Shown here piece by piece: positions 11,481 through 51,926 of a DNA stretch of 64,000 nt. This stretch comes from a bacterium (GTDB lineage: Bacteria > Patescibacteriota > Microgenomatia > Woykebacterales > RBG-16-39-9b). The notes below the pieces were generated by a model. The model searched no databases. It was not told where the DNA came from and saw only the letters and a program-made list of their open reading frames with translations. Location: NCBI GenBank assembly GCA_030704665.1, contig JAUYID010000009.1:857702-921701 (forward strand), in the 5' to 3' direction. Position numbers and translations under genes: made by a program. Numbering within the stretch: the first letter of the stretch is position 1; every line of letters begins with the position of its first letter.

Positions 11481-11672
11481 TTAACCTTCAGTGGCAAATT
11501 CGCTTGGAGCTTTTCTAAATTCTTCAAGACAGTTTGCAGAGCAAAAATAGTACGTTTTGCCCTTGAAACTTGCCTTCAAATCCTCGTTTCGCAAAACTCG
11601 CATTCCGCAAACTGGATCGCTGGCCATCTCTTTTTCGGCGGCGAAATATTTACTAAAATTAAAAAATTTCAT
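11481..11672 (-). CDS. YHS-domain (TRASH-like) copper-binding protein
   Basis: 63 aa; CGM...YYFCSANC motif. Confidence 0.65.
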   Translation of the reverse strand: MKFFNFSKYFAAEKEMASDPVCGMRVLRNEDLKASFKGKTYYFCSANCLEEFRKAPSEFATEG

Positions 11673-11684
11673 GTCTTCCTCGAA

Positions 11685-11870
11685 TTATTTTTTCTGAATC
11701 TGCTTCCAAAGCCAAACTATCCCAAGGACCAAAGCAATAATTACCAAGATCCAGGTTAGCAACATAAAAACCATCATCGACCCAAAGAAAAAGGGTGAGC
11801 TTCCATACATATGATCAAAGTAAACTGGACCGGCAGAGTCGGTTGCTCGATAAAACATAGGGCCAAACAT
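11685..11870 (-). CDS. small single-TM protein, hypothetical
   Basis: 61-aa ORF between csoR and the YHS gene; hydrophobic core. Confidence 0.3.
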   Translation of the reverse strand: MFGPMFYRATDSAGPVYFDHMYGSSPFFFGSMMVFMLLTWILVIIALVLGIVWLWKQIQKK

Positions 11871-18452: not shown

Positions 18453-18874
18453 TATTTAGTTTCCTTTTTTGCCGTTGTGGTGGCGGCCTGTTCCATCTTT
18501 ACCAAAACTTCTTTCTTCATCGCTCCAATTGTTACTCTTTTACCTCGTTTTGTTCTTGAGTTACTTTTTGTTCTTTGTCCTCGAACTGGTAGGCTTTTTC
18601 TATGTCTTAAACCACGGTAAGTACCTATGTCCTCCAAACGGCGGATGTTTTGCCCAACCATTCTTCGCAGGTCCCCCTCAACTGGAATTTGCTCAACTGC
18701 TTTTTGGATCTTGGAAAGCTCTTCTTCCGATAAATCTTTGACTCGCTTGTCTGGGTCGATTTTAGCTGTTTCGACAACTTTTTTGGCCAGCGTCGGACCG
18801 ATACCATAGATGTAAGGTAAAGAAAAAACTATTTTTTTGTTGTTTGGCAGTTCAATTCCAGCTATTCTGGCCAT
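18452..18874 (-). CDS. rpsM: 30S ribosomal protein S13
   Basis: [14 protein letters not shown]...; ATG at 18874 (the track ORF uses an upstream TTG). Confidence 0.95.
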
Positions 18875-18912
18875 ATTTAGCAACCTTTAATTCTATAACT
18901 TCTAGTCTAAAA

Positions 18913-18963
18913 ATATCGACCGTAATACTAATTTTTAGTTTTCCAAAAACAACCTTTTGGTCG
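18913..18963 (-). repeat. intercistronic element copy A (rpmJ-rpsM gap): core flanked by 7-bp arms ATCGACC/GGTCGAT
   Basis: Minus-strand sense: ATCGACCAAAAGGTTGTTTTTGGAAAACTAAAAATTAGTATTACGGTCGAT. Begins with an ATG (18975) 6 nt after the rpmJ stop, giving a 41-codon mini-ORF (18850-18975) that runs into rpsM. Confidence 0.6.
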
Positions 18964-18981
18964 ATATAATTGCTCATAGTA

Positions 18982-19095
18982 ACTTAGCCCTGTCGTTGTT
19001 TGTGACGAGGGTTTACACAAATAACAAAAAGCGTTCCTCTACGCTTTACAATTTTACAGTTTATACAACGTTTTTTTATTGATGCTTGCACTTTC
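18982..19095 (-). CDS. rpmJ: 50S ribosomal protein L36 (zinc-ribbon C+ form), GTG start; absent from the ORF track
   Basis: GTG AAA GTG...: (M)[36 protein letters not shown], 37 aa, with the C-x2-C-x12-C-x4-H signature. Confidence 0.85.
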
Positions 19096-19133
19096 ACAGT
19101 AAACAACCTTACTTTCTATGATTTAGTTTAACA

Positions 19134-19173
19134 GTATCGACCGTAATACTAATTTTTAGTTTTCCAAAAACAA
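19134..19173 (-). repeat. intercistronic element copy B (infA-rpmJ gap), first 40 nt identical to copy A, upstream arm replaced
   Basis: 19134-19173 is identical to 18913-18952. The other arm is GCCCGGGG instead of GGTCGAT. Confidence 0.55.
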
Positions 19174-19200
19174 CCCCGGGCAGGTTTACAGTAATCAATG

Positions 19201-24472: not shown

Positions 24473-24487
24473 AATTTCTAAATATCC

Positions 24488-24556
24488 TTACGTCCTATCC
24501 TCATTAAATTTAGCAGTTATAGCGACAACCTCTCGGTCTGAATAATTTTTCATCAT
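24488..24556 (-). repeat. degenerate intercistronic element copy F (rplE-rpsZ gap)
   Basis: ATGATGAAAAATTATTCAGACCGAGAGGTTGTCGCTATAACTGCTAAATTTAATGAGG resembles the 5' half of copy A (AATTAT..GACC.A.AGGTTGT). Its ATG overlaps the rplE TGA by 1 nt (TGATG), giving a 22-codon mini-ORF. Confidence 0.4.
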
Positions 24557-25405: not shown

Positions 25406-25428
25406 TTTCGGGCTCCTAGAAAGAAAGC

Positions 25429-25500
25429 ATCGACCAACATATTAATTTTTACTGTCTGTAAAATTGCACCCTGCTTCTCCGAAACAACCTTCTGGTCGAT
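25429..25500 (-). repeat. intercistronic element copy C (rplN-rplX gap), same ATCGACC/GGTCGAT arms, 31-nt insertion in the core
   Basis: ATCGACCAGAAGGTTGTTT[cggagaagcagggtgcaattttacagacagt]AAAAATTAATATGTTGGTCGAT. The 35-codon mini-ORF at 25402-25509 starts 2 nt after the rplN stop, and its TGA overlaps the rplX ATG (ATGA). Confidence 0.55.
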
Positions 25501-25511
25501 ATAGTTCATTC

Positions 25512-30644: not shown

Positions 30645-30692
30645 ACGAAAAAGGCCTCATCGGCCCTTTTCACTTATACACCAACCAAGTTG

Positions 30693-32225: not shown

Positions 32226-32399
32226 TTTAATTCCTCCTTTAGGACCTTTTAAACTTAGTTTCTGTTCTTTCTAATCAATTTGCTCTTAGCTTCGTTTCAG
32301 GCTCGTTCGCACGTTTTACTATTTTAGCAGACTCAGTCAAATACGCTAGCCCCTTCTTTCTCTTCTGGTTGCTTTACCCGCTTTTAGCCTCAAACAACC

Positions 32400-34692: not shown

Positions 34693-34738
34693 AAAACACC
34701 TCTTCGGTGCTCTTGGCAGTTAGTTTTTAACTGCCGTT

Positions 34739-40441: not shown

Positions 40442-40467
40442 AGTTTTTTTCCGCTTTCAATTGAAAT

Positions 40468-40515
40468 ATCAACCGCAGTACAAATTTTTAAGTTTTTCAA
40501 AAACCAGCCGTTGAT
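40468..40515 (-). repeat. intercistronic element copy D (rpoB-rpoC gap), arms ATCAAC/GTTGAT
   Basis: ATCAACGGCTGGTTTTTGAAAAACTTAAAAATTTGTACTGCGGTTGAT. The 30-codon mini-ORF at 40438-40530 has its ATG overlapping the rpoB TGA (ATGA) and its TGA overlapping the rpoC ATG (ATGA). Confidence 0.6.
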
Positions 40516-40526
40516 TGATAATTCGT

Positions 40527-43500
40527 TCATTCAACAACTTCCTCTTTCAGCTGTTTTTCAGTTGGTTCTTCAACTTCTTCTTTATTTGTTGCCTTGGCTT
40601 CTTCGTTTCCTTCCTCAATCTCAAGAGGAGAATTCTTACTTTCTATTTCCTCAACAGAAGCTTCTATTTCTTCCCCCGCTGCTACGGCAAGTTCTTGACC
40701 AGCTTCTTCAGCTTTGGCCTCTTCAACAAGTTCTTTGGTAGTTTCTGGCTTCTCCTCTTCGATTTGCGCTCCCAAAAGCTCGACTTTTAACCCGAGCCCG
40801 TTCAACTCTTTGACCAAAACTTTAAACGATTCCGGAACAGTTGATTCAGGAATATCAGTTCCCTTGACAATGGCTTCAAAAGCTTTGGCTCGACCAACTA
40901 CATCATCAGATTTTATGGTCAGCATCTCCTGTAAGGTGTGAGAAGCACCATAAGCTTCTAGGGCCCAGACCTCCATTTCCCCTAGCCTCTGGCCTCCCAT
41001 TTGAGCTTTTCCTCCCAACGGTTGTTGAGTGACCAAAGAGTACGGTCCAGTACTACGCGCATGAACTTTTTCATCAACCATGTGAACAAGTTTCATGATG
41101 TAACTGACACCAACCGTGATTGGGTTGGCAAAAACTTCCCCGGTTTTTCCGTTGTAGAGAGTCACTTTTCCACTGACCGGCAAACCAGCTTTTTTCAGTT
41201 CTTCTTCGATTTCTTCTTCTTTAGCACCACCGAAAGCGGGGATGGCGGCGTTGTAACCCTGTTTGGCAGCGGCCCAACCCAAGTGTGTTTCGAGTAGCTG
41301 GCCCAGATTCATACGAGAAATGATTGAGAGTGGTGAAAGAATAATATCAATCGGAGTTCCATCCTCAAGATGAGGCATATCTTCAATCGGAACTACTTTG
41401 GAAATTACTCCTTTGTTTCCGTGACGCCCCGCCAGCTTGTCTCCAACAGTAATTTTTCTTGTTTGGGCAACTTTTACTTTGATCAAGCGCTGGACCCCAG
41501 GTTCAATCTCATCGCCAGCCTCCTTGGAAAGAATTTGTACTCCAACCACAGTTCCACTTTCTCCGTGAGGCATACGCAAAGATGTATCCCGTACTTCACG
41601 TGCTTTTTCACCAAAAATAGCTCTGAGTAACCTTTCCTCAGCAGTAAGCTCGGTTTCTCCTTTAGGGGTAATTTTTCCCACCAAAATATCGTTTGGACCA
41701 ACCTCAGCTCCGATGTAAACAATCCCTTGTTCGTCGAGATTGGCCAAAGCCTCTTCTCCAACGTTCGGAATATCTCGCGTGGTTTCTTCAGGACCTAGTT
41801 TAGTTTCAGTCACAGAAGCTTCAAACTCTTCAATGTGGATTGAAGTCAAAAGGTCTTCTTGCACCAGTCTTTCTGAAATAATAACCGCGTCTTCATAGCC
41901 GTAACCCTCCCAAGACATGTAGGCTATAAGTAAGTTTTGTCCCAAAGCGAGCTCTCCGTTTTCAGAAACTGGTCCATCAGCGACAATTTGGCCTTTTTTG
42001 ACCTTTTCACCTATTTTGGCAATTGCCTTTTGAGTGTAAGCAGTATTTTGATTTGATTTAACAAACTTAGAAAGCTCAAGAGTGTATTCTTTTTTACCGG
42101 CTTCTTCGATTTTTATCATTTGACCGTCTACATAGCTGACTCGACCATCAACCGGACTCATGAGTACTCGTCCCATGTTTTCAGCTACAACGCTCTCCAT
42201 GCCTGTCCCAACGATGGGCGCCCTTGGTTTGATCAGAGGAACAGCCTGAGCTTGCATATTCGCTCCCATCAAAGCTCGGTTCGCATCGTCGTGGGCTAAG
42301 AAAGGAATCAGTGAACTAGAAGCACCAACGATCTGCCAAGGGACAACATCGATAAAATCTACTTGAGAAGAAAGGGCGGTAGTAAAAGAAGCTTTATGTC
42401 GGACCGGGACACGACTGTCCAAAATGTAACCTTTCTTGTCGAGACTAATATTTGCATGGGTGATAAAATATTGCTCTTCATCATCGGCCATCATCCAAAC
42501 AATTTCGTCAGTGACCCGAGCCTTACCGTCTTTTGTTTTCTCAACCTTTCGATAAGGGGTTTCCAAAAAGCCATATTCGTTGATTCTTCCCATCAAGGCC
42601 AGGTGAGTGATCAATCCAATGTTTGGCCCTTCCGGGGATTTGATTGGATCAATACGACCGTACTGGGAGTTGTTGATGTCATGAACTGAGAAACTAGCTC
42701 TTTCGCGAGTCAAACCACCTGGCCCCATCACAGAAAGACGGCGCAAATGTTCAAGCTCGGAAAGGGAATTAATCTGGTCCATAAACTGCGAGAGCTGTGA
42801 GCCAGCAAAGAATTCGTTCAACCGCGCTACCACAGGTCGAGCGTTGATCAGTGAGGTTGGAGTGACCATAGTCAGATCAGCTGAAATACTCATTCTTTCT
42901 TTGACCACCCGTTCCATCTGCAACAAACCAACTCGCAAAACGTTCTGGACTAGCTCACCAACCGTTCGAACACGTCGGTTTCCGAGATGATCAATATCAT
43001 CGGCTTCTCCTTGACCGTTGTTGAGCTGAATCAAAAATCTAGTGGCCGCAATGATGTCATCTTGTGTCAAGATCCAGTGCTCAGAATCGTTGGTAACCTC
43101 AATTCCCAATCTCTTGTTGAGCTTGTAACGACCCACTTTCCCCAAACTGTAGCGCCGAGGATTGAAGAAAAGGTTTTCGAGTAGAACTTTGGCATTTTCC
43201 AAAATTGCAGGGTCTCCGGGGCGCATTTTGTGATAAATCTCAAGATAAGCTTCGTCAGGACCACTAGTCGAATCCTTGGCTAGAGTCGTATCAATGTAGT
43301 GGTGGTCTTCGTTCTTGTCTACTTCAGAGAAAAGTTCTCGTATTTTTTCATCTGACCCAAAGCCAATTGCTCGCAACAAGGTCGTTGCCGGAATGCGACG
43401 TTTTCGGTCGATTCTCACGGTCAGAAGGTCGTTTTTCGCGGTTTCAAACTCAAGCCAACTACCTCGGGTCGGCCGCAGCTCTGCTTTAAACAAGGCTCTT

Positions 43501-50924: not shown

Positions 50925-51812
50925 CTAGGGGAAGCTTTTTTCGATCGTTTCCCCTTCTTTACCCAAAATTGACTCTTTCCCCTCAAAGGTAGTTGTAGTT
51001 GAGCCGGCGTTGTGACTGATTAAGCGTATTCTTCTTTCGGCCTGAAAGACTCTTTCCGCCCCAGAGGCCAAAACCCCTTCAAAGGAAATTTTGCCGTCAA
51101 CCTCAGCACTGATACTGACTGCGTTTGGTCCAATTTTTATTTTCAGCTCAACTTTTGTTTTTGGGGGCGGTTCATTTTCAGTTTTTGGACTAACTACTAG
51201 CGTTCGCTTTTCAGTAGAAATTTTTCCAAAACGATTGGCGGCAGTGACAGTGATCGTGTTGACCCCTTCCGGGAGACTAACCGCAACTGAAAAACTTCCA
51301 CCTGGATCAAGCTGCACTTCCTGACCGTTAATTTTCAAAATCGCGTCAGGCCAGGTGCGACCAACTACATTGGCTTGATCTCCTTGGATTTTCGTATTGT
51401 CCTTTGGTTCTACGACCTCTAGAAAAGGTGTGCCAGTGAAGCTTCGATACTGAACAAAGAGATAACCGAGGACGAGACTCATCACGACAAGGGCGACAAA
51501 ACCAGTCACCCAACGAGGAGTCAGACGGAAGCTGGAGGGGTTTTTCAGGATCGTTCGGCGAGGTAGGACAACTTTCTTCTCGTCAAACTCACGGCGGTAG
51601 AAAGCGAGGACATCCTCAGCCGAGATCCCAAGAAATTTTCCATAATTTTTAAGTAAACCTCTGACGAAAATCGGCGAGGGAAGGGCTTGCCAAACCCCCT
51701 CCTCAAGAAGAAGTAGAGTTTTTTTGCGAATCTTGGTGGCTTGTTCGACGTCTTCAAGGCTCAAGCCCTTGTTTTTTCTGGCTTCCGAAAGGATTTGTCC
51801 TACCCGTTTCAC
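50925..51812 (-). CDS. rodZ: RodZ-like cytoskeleton protein (HTH plus TM plus C-terminal Ig-like domain)
   Basis: GTG start; HTH (LSLEDVEQATKIRKKTL); TM; beta-rich C-terminus. Confidence 0.7.
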   Translation of the reverse strand: MKRVGQILSEARKNKGLSLEDVEQATKIRKKTLLLLEEGVWQALPSPIFVRGLLKNYGKFLGISAEDVLAFYRREFDEKKVVLPRRTILKNPSSFRLTPRWVTGFVALVVMSLVLGYLFVQYRSFTGTPFLEVVEPKDNTKIQGDQANVVGRTWPDAILKINGQEVQLDPGGSFSVAVSLPEGVNTITVTAANRFGKISTEKRTLVVSPKTENEPPPKTKVELKIKIGPNAVSISAEVDGKISFEGVLASGAERVFQAERRIRLISHNAGSTTTTFEGKESILGKEGETIEKSFP

Positions 51813-51841
51813 GATTTTACTTTCCCAAAAGTAAGAGCAGT

Positions 51842-51892
51842 ATCGCGCGCATAATAAATTTTTAGTTTTTCAAAAACAAGCCTTAGCGCGAT
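51842..51892 (-). repeat. intercistronic element copy E (ftsK-rodZ gap), arms ATCGCGC/GCGCGAT
   Basis: ATCGCGCTAAGGCTTGTTTTTGAAAAACTAAAAATTTATTATGCGCGCGAT; no in-frame ATG start in this copy. Confidence 0.55.
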
Positions 51893-51926
51893 ATAAACTT
51901 TTTTTAATATATTAGCTTAGTTGCTT

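Follow-up and report, generated by a model that had tools for sequence, protein, structure and literature searches.

Why should copies of one short repeat lie between the genes of highly conserved operons in a bacterium with a streamlined genome? This question is raised by a 64,000-nt stretch of contig JAUYID010000009.1 (assembly GCA_030704665.1, positions 857,702 to 921,701; this whole stretch is called the window below) from a member of the Woykebacterales in the Patescibacteria, or candidate phyla radiation (CPR). CPR bacteria have small, streamlined genomes, and few gene arrays of bacteria are as conserved as the S10-spc-alpha and rpoBC operons. Four or five insertions of one repeat family are seen there, each so built that the next gene keeps a start codon, a Shine-Dalgarno (SD) sequence and, upstream, an apparently coupled open reading frame (ORF; here called mini-ORF). 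The repeats are probably short, non-autonomous and orientation-specific elements, which were inserted and sometimes lost at the stop/start junctions of operons within a narrow, Woykebacteria-like clade of the CPR. Such a repeat is unexpected in a streamlined CPR genome and in the most conserved operons, and it involves no new principle.

Copies of the repeat and their location

The products encoded in the window include the str-S10-spc-alpha ribosomal cluster, rpoBC, ftsK, nusA-infB and others. Its GC content is about 43%, and every major gene is on the minus strand. The S13 protein encoded here is identical to one from a 938-kb metagenome-assembled genome, and its nearest named relatives belong to Candidatus Woykebacteria. 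The repeat was noticed in the two spacers on either side of rpmJ, infA|rpmJ and rpmJ|rpsM. The 25-nt core GGTTGTTTTTGRAAAACTAAAAATT occurs three times in the window at up to three mismatches, where 0 are expected (none in 100 shuffles). An unsupervised repeat search of the window returned a top family of five copies, at 18903-18954, 19124-19175, 25417-25468, 40456-40507 and 51830-51881. An earlier note on this DNA had counted at least six copies. Five are indeed highly significant with a profile hidden Markov model (HMM) built from the copies (E values 1e-13 to 1e-18), which has no other match in the window, and the sixth is only a decayed relic. A covariance model, one of the checks proposed by the same note, was trained without copies B and C and recovers both of them (E 3e-6 and 6e-5, respectively). 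Every copy of the window is on the minus (coding) strand between co-directional genes, the right arm ends 23-38 nt upstream of the next start codon, and the filled junctions are infA|rpmJ, rpmJ|rpsM, rplN|rplX, rpoB|rpoC and ftsK|rodZ-like. The features are as follows.

18875 to 18977, minus strand: copy A, full unit, between the rpmJ stop (18984-18986) and the rpsM start (18874); 84 bits with the covariance model.
18977 to 18913, minus strand: parts of copy A, namely the ATG (18977-18975), the left arm (18967-18959), the core and the right arm (18921-18913).
18889 to 18875, minus strand: tail of copy A, type-1, with the SD-like motif TAAAGG.
18938 to 18950, minus strand: inner AU-rich hairpin of copy A (GUUUU-UGG-AAAAC), with UUUUUGG/CUAAAAA as an alternative pairing.
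19098 to 19198, minus strand: copy B, from the infA stop to the GTG start of rpmJ (19097); 40.8 bits, not in the training set.
24473 to 24553, minus strand: decayed copy at rplE|rpsN, in which only the ATG and the left-arm region (24553-24525) are recognisable; 21-codon mini-ORF.
25406 to 25509, minus strand: copy C at rplN|rplX, whose arms lie at 25500-25493 and 25436-25429; 34.9 bits, left out of the training.
40442 to 40530, minus strand: copy D at rpoB|rpoC, with arms TATCAATC (40520-40513) and GGTTGATA (40474-40467).
51813 to 51897, minus strand: copy E, from ftsK to a RodZ-like helix-turn-helix gene (GTG start at 51812).
51893 to 51886 and 51848 to 51841, minus strand: arms of copy E, TATCGCGC and GCGCGATA, with two compensatory pairs.

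The decayed copy was missed by both the profile HMM and the covariance model. Its first 30 nt or so resemble copy A with a score that is reached by 6 of 2000 shuffles, and it is an insertion of 83 nt, relatives being tight at this junction. Because of this similarity and this insertion, it is accepted as a decayed member of the family. A seventh copy (K) was found about 8 kb past the right edge of the window, between hrcA and grpE of the heat-shock operon, and therefore the family is not confined to ribosomal operons. About 73 kb of this 938-kb genome, the part that was sampled, thus hold seven copies.

For comparison, five relatives were fetched through homologues of S13 and one through a DNA pattern. 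The identity of their ribosomal proteins to those of the window is 81% (L039 and L045), 78% (L043), 74% (L037) and 66% (L048). Together with the genome under study they give a set of 12 copies from four genomes. All 12 are in spacers between co-directional genes of one operon and have the same orientation as the genes. The placement in short gaps between co-directional genes, already described in the earlier note, thus holds for every copy. By the covariance model, there are no copies in the sampled regions of L039, L041/L047 and L048.

Anatomy of the unit

The element had been described as being about 50 nt long. When all copies are read in transcript sense together with five from relatives, the unit is about 85-105 nt long (27-38% GC) and includes its own start codon and SD sequence. 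In most copies the start codon is 3 or 6 nt upstream of TATATC, always in the frame TAT ATC GAC. It is followed by the left arm ATATCGACC, by AAGGTTGTTTTTGRAAAACT, which holds a 5-bp AU hairpin, by AAAAATT and a TATTAT-like octamer, and then by the right arm GGTCGATAT. The two arms form an outer stem of 8-9 bp (ATATCGACC...GGTCGATAT), which encloses the AU-rich core with its 5-bp inner hairpin. The arms are subterminal on the 3′ side, since the unit runs 25-45 nt past the right arm as a tail that closes with an SD-like motif 6-10 nt before the downstream start. There are two types of tail. Type-1 (...ATAGAAAGTAAGGTTGTTTAMWT) is present in copies A and B, in the L037 copy at rpsK|rpsD, in the L045 copy at infA|rpmJ and in a short L043 form at rplE|rpsN. 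Type-2 (ATTTTCTCGCRGGAGCTMGAAR) is present in copy C, in the L043 copy at rplN|rplX and in the L045 copy at rplW|rplB. Type-1 thus occupies four junctions and type-2 two. Neither type is confined to a single junction, and the tail is therefore part of the element.

The individual copies have diverged in different ways. Copy A is complete, and its arm-to-arm fold has a free energy of -16 kcal/mol (z -4.1). Copy B is identical to A over 40 nt of core and right arm (19175-19134) and has lost the left arm, just as the earlier note had it. In copy C the core is expanded or decayed, and the type-2 tail carries the SD sequence GGAG. The 31-nt insertion once ascribed to this copy is 21 alignment columns relative to A, and compared with its L043 counterpart at rplN|rplX, copy C has 18 nt more. 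The arms are self-complementary as originally reported. Those of copy D had been thought to pair over 6 bp only; they do pair, in register over 8 pairs, with one compensatory A-U and one G.U. Copy D is also bordered by an 8-nt direct repeat, TGAATGAA. Copy E has neither a start codon nor a mini-ORF.

Insertion and patchy occupancy

The evidence for insertion comes from the same junctions in relatives. In relatives with 74-83% identity of ribosomal proteins, these junctions are 2-10 nt long vs. 83-109 nt in the window; one example of an empty junction is GGTTTAGAAATG at rplN|rplX. Conversely, rpsK|rpsD is filled in L037 only (E 1e-14) and rplW|rplB in L045 only (E 2e-13), and the window is tight at both. 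The tight junctions of relatives, together with copies elsewhere in the same relatives, therefore identify the copies as lineage-specific insertions at stop/start junctions. Their occupancy is patchy among close relatives and does not follow relatedness. At infA|rpmJ, the window and L045 have a copy and L039 has none; at rplN|rplX, there is a copy in the window and in L043, and the junction is empty in L039, L045 and L037. Since these two junctions are filled in genomes that are not sisters, repeated gain and/or precise loss must have taken place. With this patchy, lineage-specific insertion the elements behave as mobile DNA, a status that was missed when candidate roles for the repeat were listed in the earlier note. 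The elements themselves may well be mobile, rather than gained and lost by recombination only.

Some copies show decay and rearrangement, as is typical of repeats. The core of copy B is 100% identical to that of copy A, 221 nt away, and the L045 copy at the same junction as B has a different core, which suggests gene conversion. At rplE|rpsN in L043 there is a short form of 30 nt in which the left arm is joined straight to the end of the tail, and this form would be explained by a deletion between the internal AAGGTTGTTT repeats. No tandem array was detected by TRF at any copy, and there is one unit per junction. The repeats also affect assembly. The Logan assembly of the source sample, SRR13727534, breaks exactly at copies B and A (the end of L036 and the start of L050), so that the ribosomal operon is split over contigs in that assembly. 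The repeat thereby explains assembly breaks inside the ribosomal operon of these organisms.

The start codon of rpmJ varies among the genomes compared. It is GTG in both genomes with an upstream element (TTTACTGTGAAAGT; window 19097, L045 about 9880), whereas the five relatives whose junction is empty all have ATG. Upstream of copy B, its 5′ flank holds TTGATTACTGTAAAC, a near-duplicate of the end of the tail plus the rpmJ start (TTGTTTACTGTGAAA).

Mini-ORFs and possible translational coupling

How can a gene tolerate such an insertion directly in front of its start codon? A mini-ORF spanning the spacer is present at 9 of the 12 sites vs. 1.1 (1.11) expected from shuffled spacers, or at 7 of 9 when counted by junction. 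The mini-ORFs are 21-41 codons long, start at -4 to +6 nt from the upstream stop and end at -18 to +20 nt from the downstream start. In three of the 12 copies (C, D and the copy in L043), the 3′ end is an exact ATGA overlap. The overlaps in C and D had been reported before and are as described: the mini-ORF of C (35 codons, called as a 35-aa gene) overlaps the start of rplX (25405), and that of D (30 codons) has ATGA overlaps at both the rpoB stop and the rpoC start (40441). Mini-ORFs had likewise been assigned to A, C, D and the degenerate copy, and these are confirmed; one in copy B, initiated by TTG and 29 codons long, had been overlooked. Despite a length difference of 18 nt, copy C and its L043 counterpart at rplN|rplX keep the frame at both ends, so that an open frame bridging stop to start is maintained, as translational coupling would require. 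The excess of mini-ORFs is a significant feature and is consistent with translational coupling. A reinitiation or coupling device was among the candidate roles in the earlier note.

A working scheme can be drawn from these features. Because the junctions in relatives are tight, the downstream gene has its SD sequence within the 3′ end of the gene before it. Once the element is inserted, this resident ribosome-binding site would face, and would now serve, the start codon of the element, and the tail would supply a new SD sequence. Ribosomes would then translate the mini-ORF of 21-41 codons through the hairpin and end at or near the start of the next gene, with exact ATGA overlap in three copies. 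Initiation there would be supported by the element's own SD sequence, and in this way coupling and operon expression would survive the insertion. The scheme presupposes that the mini-ORF is translated. The filled and empty junctions form a natural set for the study of translational coupling.

The mini-ORFs might instead encode genuine small proteins, in which case the repeat would be a family of paralogous micro-genes. Six copies share the N-terminal M-x-(N/K)-Y-I-D-x-K-V-V, the ATG is always in one frame relative to TATATC, and one mini-ORF has been called as a gene. However, a profile of the translated mini-ORFs, searched against 5.8 billion proteins, matched only that called one, mini-ORF C itself. 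Indels of 1-2 nt shift the frame after ...KVV from copy to copy and leave the nucleotides alignable, three copies have no start codon, and the lengths and C-termini are set by the start of the next gene. The idea of small-protein genes is therefore scarcely credible. The absence of peptide relatives and the frame-shifting indels bear out the earlier view that conservation is at the level of nucleotides or structure. "Genes" of 29-41 codons between ribosomal protein genes in this clade are mini-ORFs of the element, a point of caution for annotators.

A spacer without a copy may look similar. At rplW|rplB, L045 (262-357) and L048 (163-258) both have 84-nt spacers and 31-codon mini-ORFs with the same end (...GN*), which overlap the rplB start. 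The L045 spacer is a clear copy of the element; the L048 spacer does not resemble it significantly, the score being equalled by 517 of 2000 shuffles, and is not supported as a relic.

Stems and folding

The earlier note had claimed compensatory covariation in the arms, and this is borne out. For ten copies aligned with MAFFT, 88.9% of the cells of the nine outer pairs are paired, vs. 24-43% with a slid partner. Three outer pairs change on both sides, which 0 of 500 shuffles reach. In an alignment fitted to the model, which leans toward structure, the paired cells amount to 93%, and four outer and three inner pairs, seven in all, change on both sides; cells pair at 24-47% in the slid-partner controls for the stems. 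The stems are thus maintained, and the compensation rests on few independent events. For the outer stem, D supplies a change from G-C to A-U and a G.U, E supplies the changes A-U to C-G and C-G to G-C, and no other copy contributes; the inner changes are from single copies. The outer stem is part of the minimum-free-energy fold of all nine two-armed copies (-10.6 to -17.6 kcal/mol, z -1.6 to -4.1). Folds of whole junctions are unremarkable (z -2.3 to +0.5). The counts of G.U and A.C, 7 vs. 5, do not identify the functional strand.

Compensatory change argues against a duplex protein-binding site and for pairing within a single strand, which would be that of the mRNA or of a single-stranded DNA intermediate. 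The hairpin may serve mobilisation through a single-stranded intermediate, or it may merely be tolerated in mRNA. A bolder version holds that the element is more than a passenger and that its hairpin is selected as a single-stranded structure. It would then be the substrate of a hairpin-recognising or RNA-mediated mobilisation at start codons, or else part of a domesticated cassette of mini-ORF, hairpin and SD sequence that retunes translation or mRNA processing in ribosomal, rpoBC and heat-shock operons. We regard this as quite improbable. If true, RNA-mediated or hairpin mobilisation would act in a genome with no obvious transposase, or such a cassette would operate in a streamlined genome of 0.9 Mb.

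Inserted repeat or host element

Several observations weigh against the interpretation as inserted repeats. Between the window and L045, the DNA of rpmJ, rpsM and infA is 73-76% identical, with third positions close to saturation (in rpmJ, 62% of them differ). The right arm and tail of the two infA|rpmJ copies are identical at 42 of 45 positions (93%). Together with the compensatory stems, this suggests that the repeat is more constrained than a passive passenger would be, or that exchange was recent, and it is the strongest point for a host-level role. Copies E and K and the L045 copy at infA|rpmJ have no mini-ORF. The flanking direct repeats are 3-8 nt long and always centred on the ATG, which could itself be borne by the element, and they demonstrate no target duplication of fixed length. 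Filling in non-sister genomes could reflect an ancient insertion with precise losses instead of ongoing mobility. The repeat-family analysis is based on only 12 copies from four genomes. BLAST searches of phages and plasmids gave no match, and no phage, viral or plasmid relative was found. No transposase or autonomous parent with these arms was seen in about 200 kb or among 10 unannotated or neighbouring ORFs of the window; within the about 200 kb examined, the 8-mers of the arms occur only inside copies.

Wider searches for the source of the family had a similar outcome. A scan with the exact pattern of the core over 185,579 species-representative genomes gave 35 matches, all by chance, mostly coding for VFEKLKI, and none with arms. 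The metagenome pattern scan returned two contigs only. In viral contigs there were 0 matches to the core, and an arms-only pattern gave 17 without the core, the number expected by chance.

The main rival, for which the 93% identity also speaks, is a cis-acting RNA element selected by the host. Whatever the origin of the element, its hairpin and tail would act in the operon transcript, either in processing and stability or in tuning translation, for example the stoichiometry of rpmJ, rpsM, rplX and rpoC products. Both stems are kept by compensatory changes, the nine two-armed copies fold into the outer stem, and all copies are in sense orientation in transcribed spacers of highly expressed operons. 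Precedents are co-transcribed miniature transposable elements with inverted repeats (MITEs), of which Correia is cut by RNase III and ERIC by RNase E (PMC10969869). However, close relatives express the same operons without the element, and several copies are in decay, as seen in the degenerate copy, the C core and the lost arm of B. The whole-junction folds are unremarkable, the G.U and A.C counts give no clear sense-strand signature, and no Rfam family fits. In addition, a canonical RNase III substrate extends over about two helical turns, for which a 9-bp stem is too short. A host-selected RNA element is accordingly considered unlikely. In Rfam itself, 0 matches in the window reach the gathering threshold, and the best permissive ones are far under the cut-off. 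A weak match to Alpha_RBS (window 18842-18942, minus strand; 18 bits vs. a gathering threshold of 38, E 0.056) spans the tail of copy A and the rpsM start and is probably compositional.

The core might also act on transcription, as an internal promoter cassette in which TTGTTT, a gap of 16-17 nt and the TATTAT-like box form a sigma-70 promoter that boosts the downstream gene. Indeed, copies E and K read TTGTTT-17-TATTAT and copy H reads TTGTTT-16-TATTAT. The -10-like box is 34-49 nt from the start codon, typical of a short 5′ untranslated region, and promoters borne by MITEs are documented (PMC10969869). However, a consensus promoter scan, in which both hexamers (-35 and -10) had to match in 4 or more of 6 positions at a spacing of 16-18 nt, never flagged an element core on the sense strand, whose -35 hexamer matches only 3 of 6, whereas the same scan flagged canonical TTGACA-17-TATAAT promoters at the operon heads of this genome. 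A usable -35 or -10 is lacking in copy D (CTGGTT...TGTACT), in the copies of L037 and L043 (TAGTTT) and in that of L045 at infA|rpmJ. The paired arms and the mini-ORFs are also left unexplained. With no sense-strand core flagged and poor hexamers, the promoter is rejected for most copies, and as an account of the family it is very improbable.

Two other candidates were rejected. As for a terminator or attenuator, a weak hairpin (CGACC-AAAA-GGTTG+U5) was flagged in copy A, but E, H and the copy in L037 do not conserve it. As for an integron attC site, suggested by the covarying palindrome, the neighbouring genes belong to core operons and keep the conserved order, and the RYYYAAC/GTTRRRY motifs are not matched by the arms.

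Comparison with known repeats

The earlier note was aware of no described element of this form. Mycobacterial interspersed repetitive units, or MIRUs, are a close functional analogue, as far as the passages on them in PMC12548453 and PMC3184786 describe them, and they are the closest described system by comparison of features. Their insertion sites are start codons within operons, and they bring an ORF that is coupled, at -4 nt, to the gene downstream, according to the passage of PMC12548453 that cites Supply et al. (1997). They are 40-100 bp long, operon-internal and co-transcribed, with filled and empty sites, and they have tetranucleotide direct repeats, imperfect terminal inverted repeats (TIRs) and ORFs overlapping adjacent genes (PMC3184786). 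The present family shares with them co-oriented repeats of that kind between co-directional operon genes, filled vs. empty sites, start-codon insertion, an internal ORF coupled downstream (-4 nt, ATGA) and imperfect inverted repeats; short direct repeats flank its copies as well, but these are hard to tell from an ATG carried by the element. It differs in having single units instead of tandem arrays, a defined and compensated stem of 8-9 bp and a tail with its own SD sequence, and the exact -4 overlap is found in only 3 of the 12 copies. The two were compared by description. There is no evident sequence relation between the AU-rich CPR repeats and those of the GC-rich Actinobacteria, and homology is unlikely. 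The way in which coupling would be preserved resembles the way in which MIRUs are thought to work.

MITEs offer a second comparison. Correia/NEMIS, ERIC and Chunjie elements are variously tolerated in operons (Chunjie), carry promoter-like boxes (Correia) or form RNA hairpins in co-transcripts (PMC10969869). Like them, the present repeats are small and non-autonomous, with inverted-repeat arms, dispersed copies, no coding capacity for a transposase and RNA hairpins. However, MITEs are 100-250 bp long and have terminal TIRs of at least 20 bp and fixed target duplications (e.g., TA), whereas here the arms are 8-9 bp and subterminal, the flanking direct repeats vary in length and every copy has one orientation. 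On balance, it seems likely that the repeats belong with MIRU-like or MITE-like intercistronic repeats that preserve translational coupling, as a new family. MIRU-style insertion at start codons with preserved coupling would then have arisen outside mycobacteria. A full-text literature search returned no report of such elements in Patescibacteria.

The Rickettsia palindromic elements (RPE) are palindromic repeats that invaded essential genes of a reduced genome and left the frames open (PMC10969869). They differ in that they insert in-frame into coding sequence and become part of the protein, whereas the present family lies between genes and has a separate mini-ORF. REP/BIME sequences share short intercistronic hairpins, stems kept as structure and a strong orientation bias. 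These sequences are mobilised by RAYT (Y1/HUH) transposases, and there are also palindromic elements derived from IS200/IS605. A single-stranded hairpin mobilisation of this type would explain the compensatory changes, and the comparison serves as a mechanistic lead only. Unlike REP/BIME, the present repeats have no GTAG/GTGG head, their stem is not GC-rich and their loop is about 37 nt, and neither RAYT nor TnpA was seen in the examined sequence.

Other intercistronic features

Several further spacers contain features of other kinds. Between rpsJ (S10) and rplC (L3), the first two genes of the S10 operon, a GC hairpin with a T-run at 30645-30692 of the window, minus strand (AAAAGGGCCGATGAGGCCTTTTTCG), has the look of an intrinsic terminator or attenuator. 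Between rpsG (S7) and fusA, at 34693-34738, minus strand, there is a perfect 7-bp hairpin (GGCAGTT-AAAAAC-TAACTGCC), unrelated in sequence to the repeat family. In the same genome, just 3′ of copy K at hrcA|grpE (L049, 1255-1330), two direct copies of about 30 nt can be seen by eye (GCGCAGAGCGCGAAGCGATCTAAGACCGAAGG / GTGCAGAGCGCGAAGCGATCTATA), which were not reported by TRF at a score of 30 and are GC-rich, unlike the element. L037, which also has one copy of the element, has a 165-nt spacer at rpsD|rpoA (11546-11712) with two copies of a unit of about 70 nt (CTACTCKCGWTAGMGAGCAGTC...GTTTATAGCCG.TAGG), a different intercistronic repeat. Finally, the 174-nt fusA|tuf spacer of the window (32226-32399, minus strand) has a promoter-like TTGACT...TAAAAT and a strong SD sequence (AAAGGAGG) before tuf, which suggests that tuf may have its own promoter inside the str operon.

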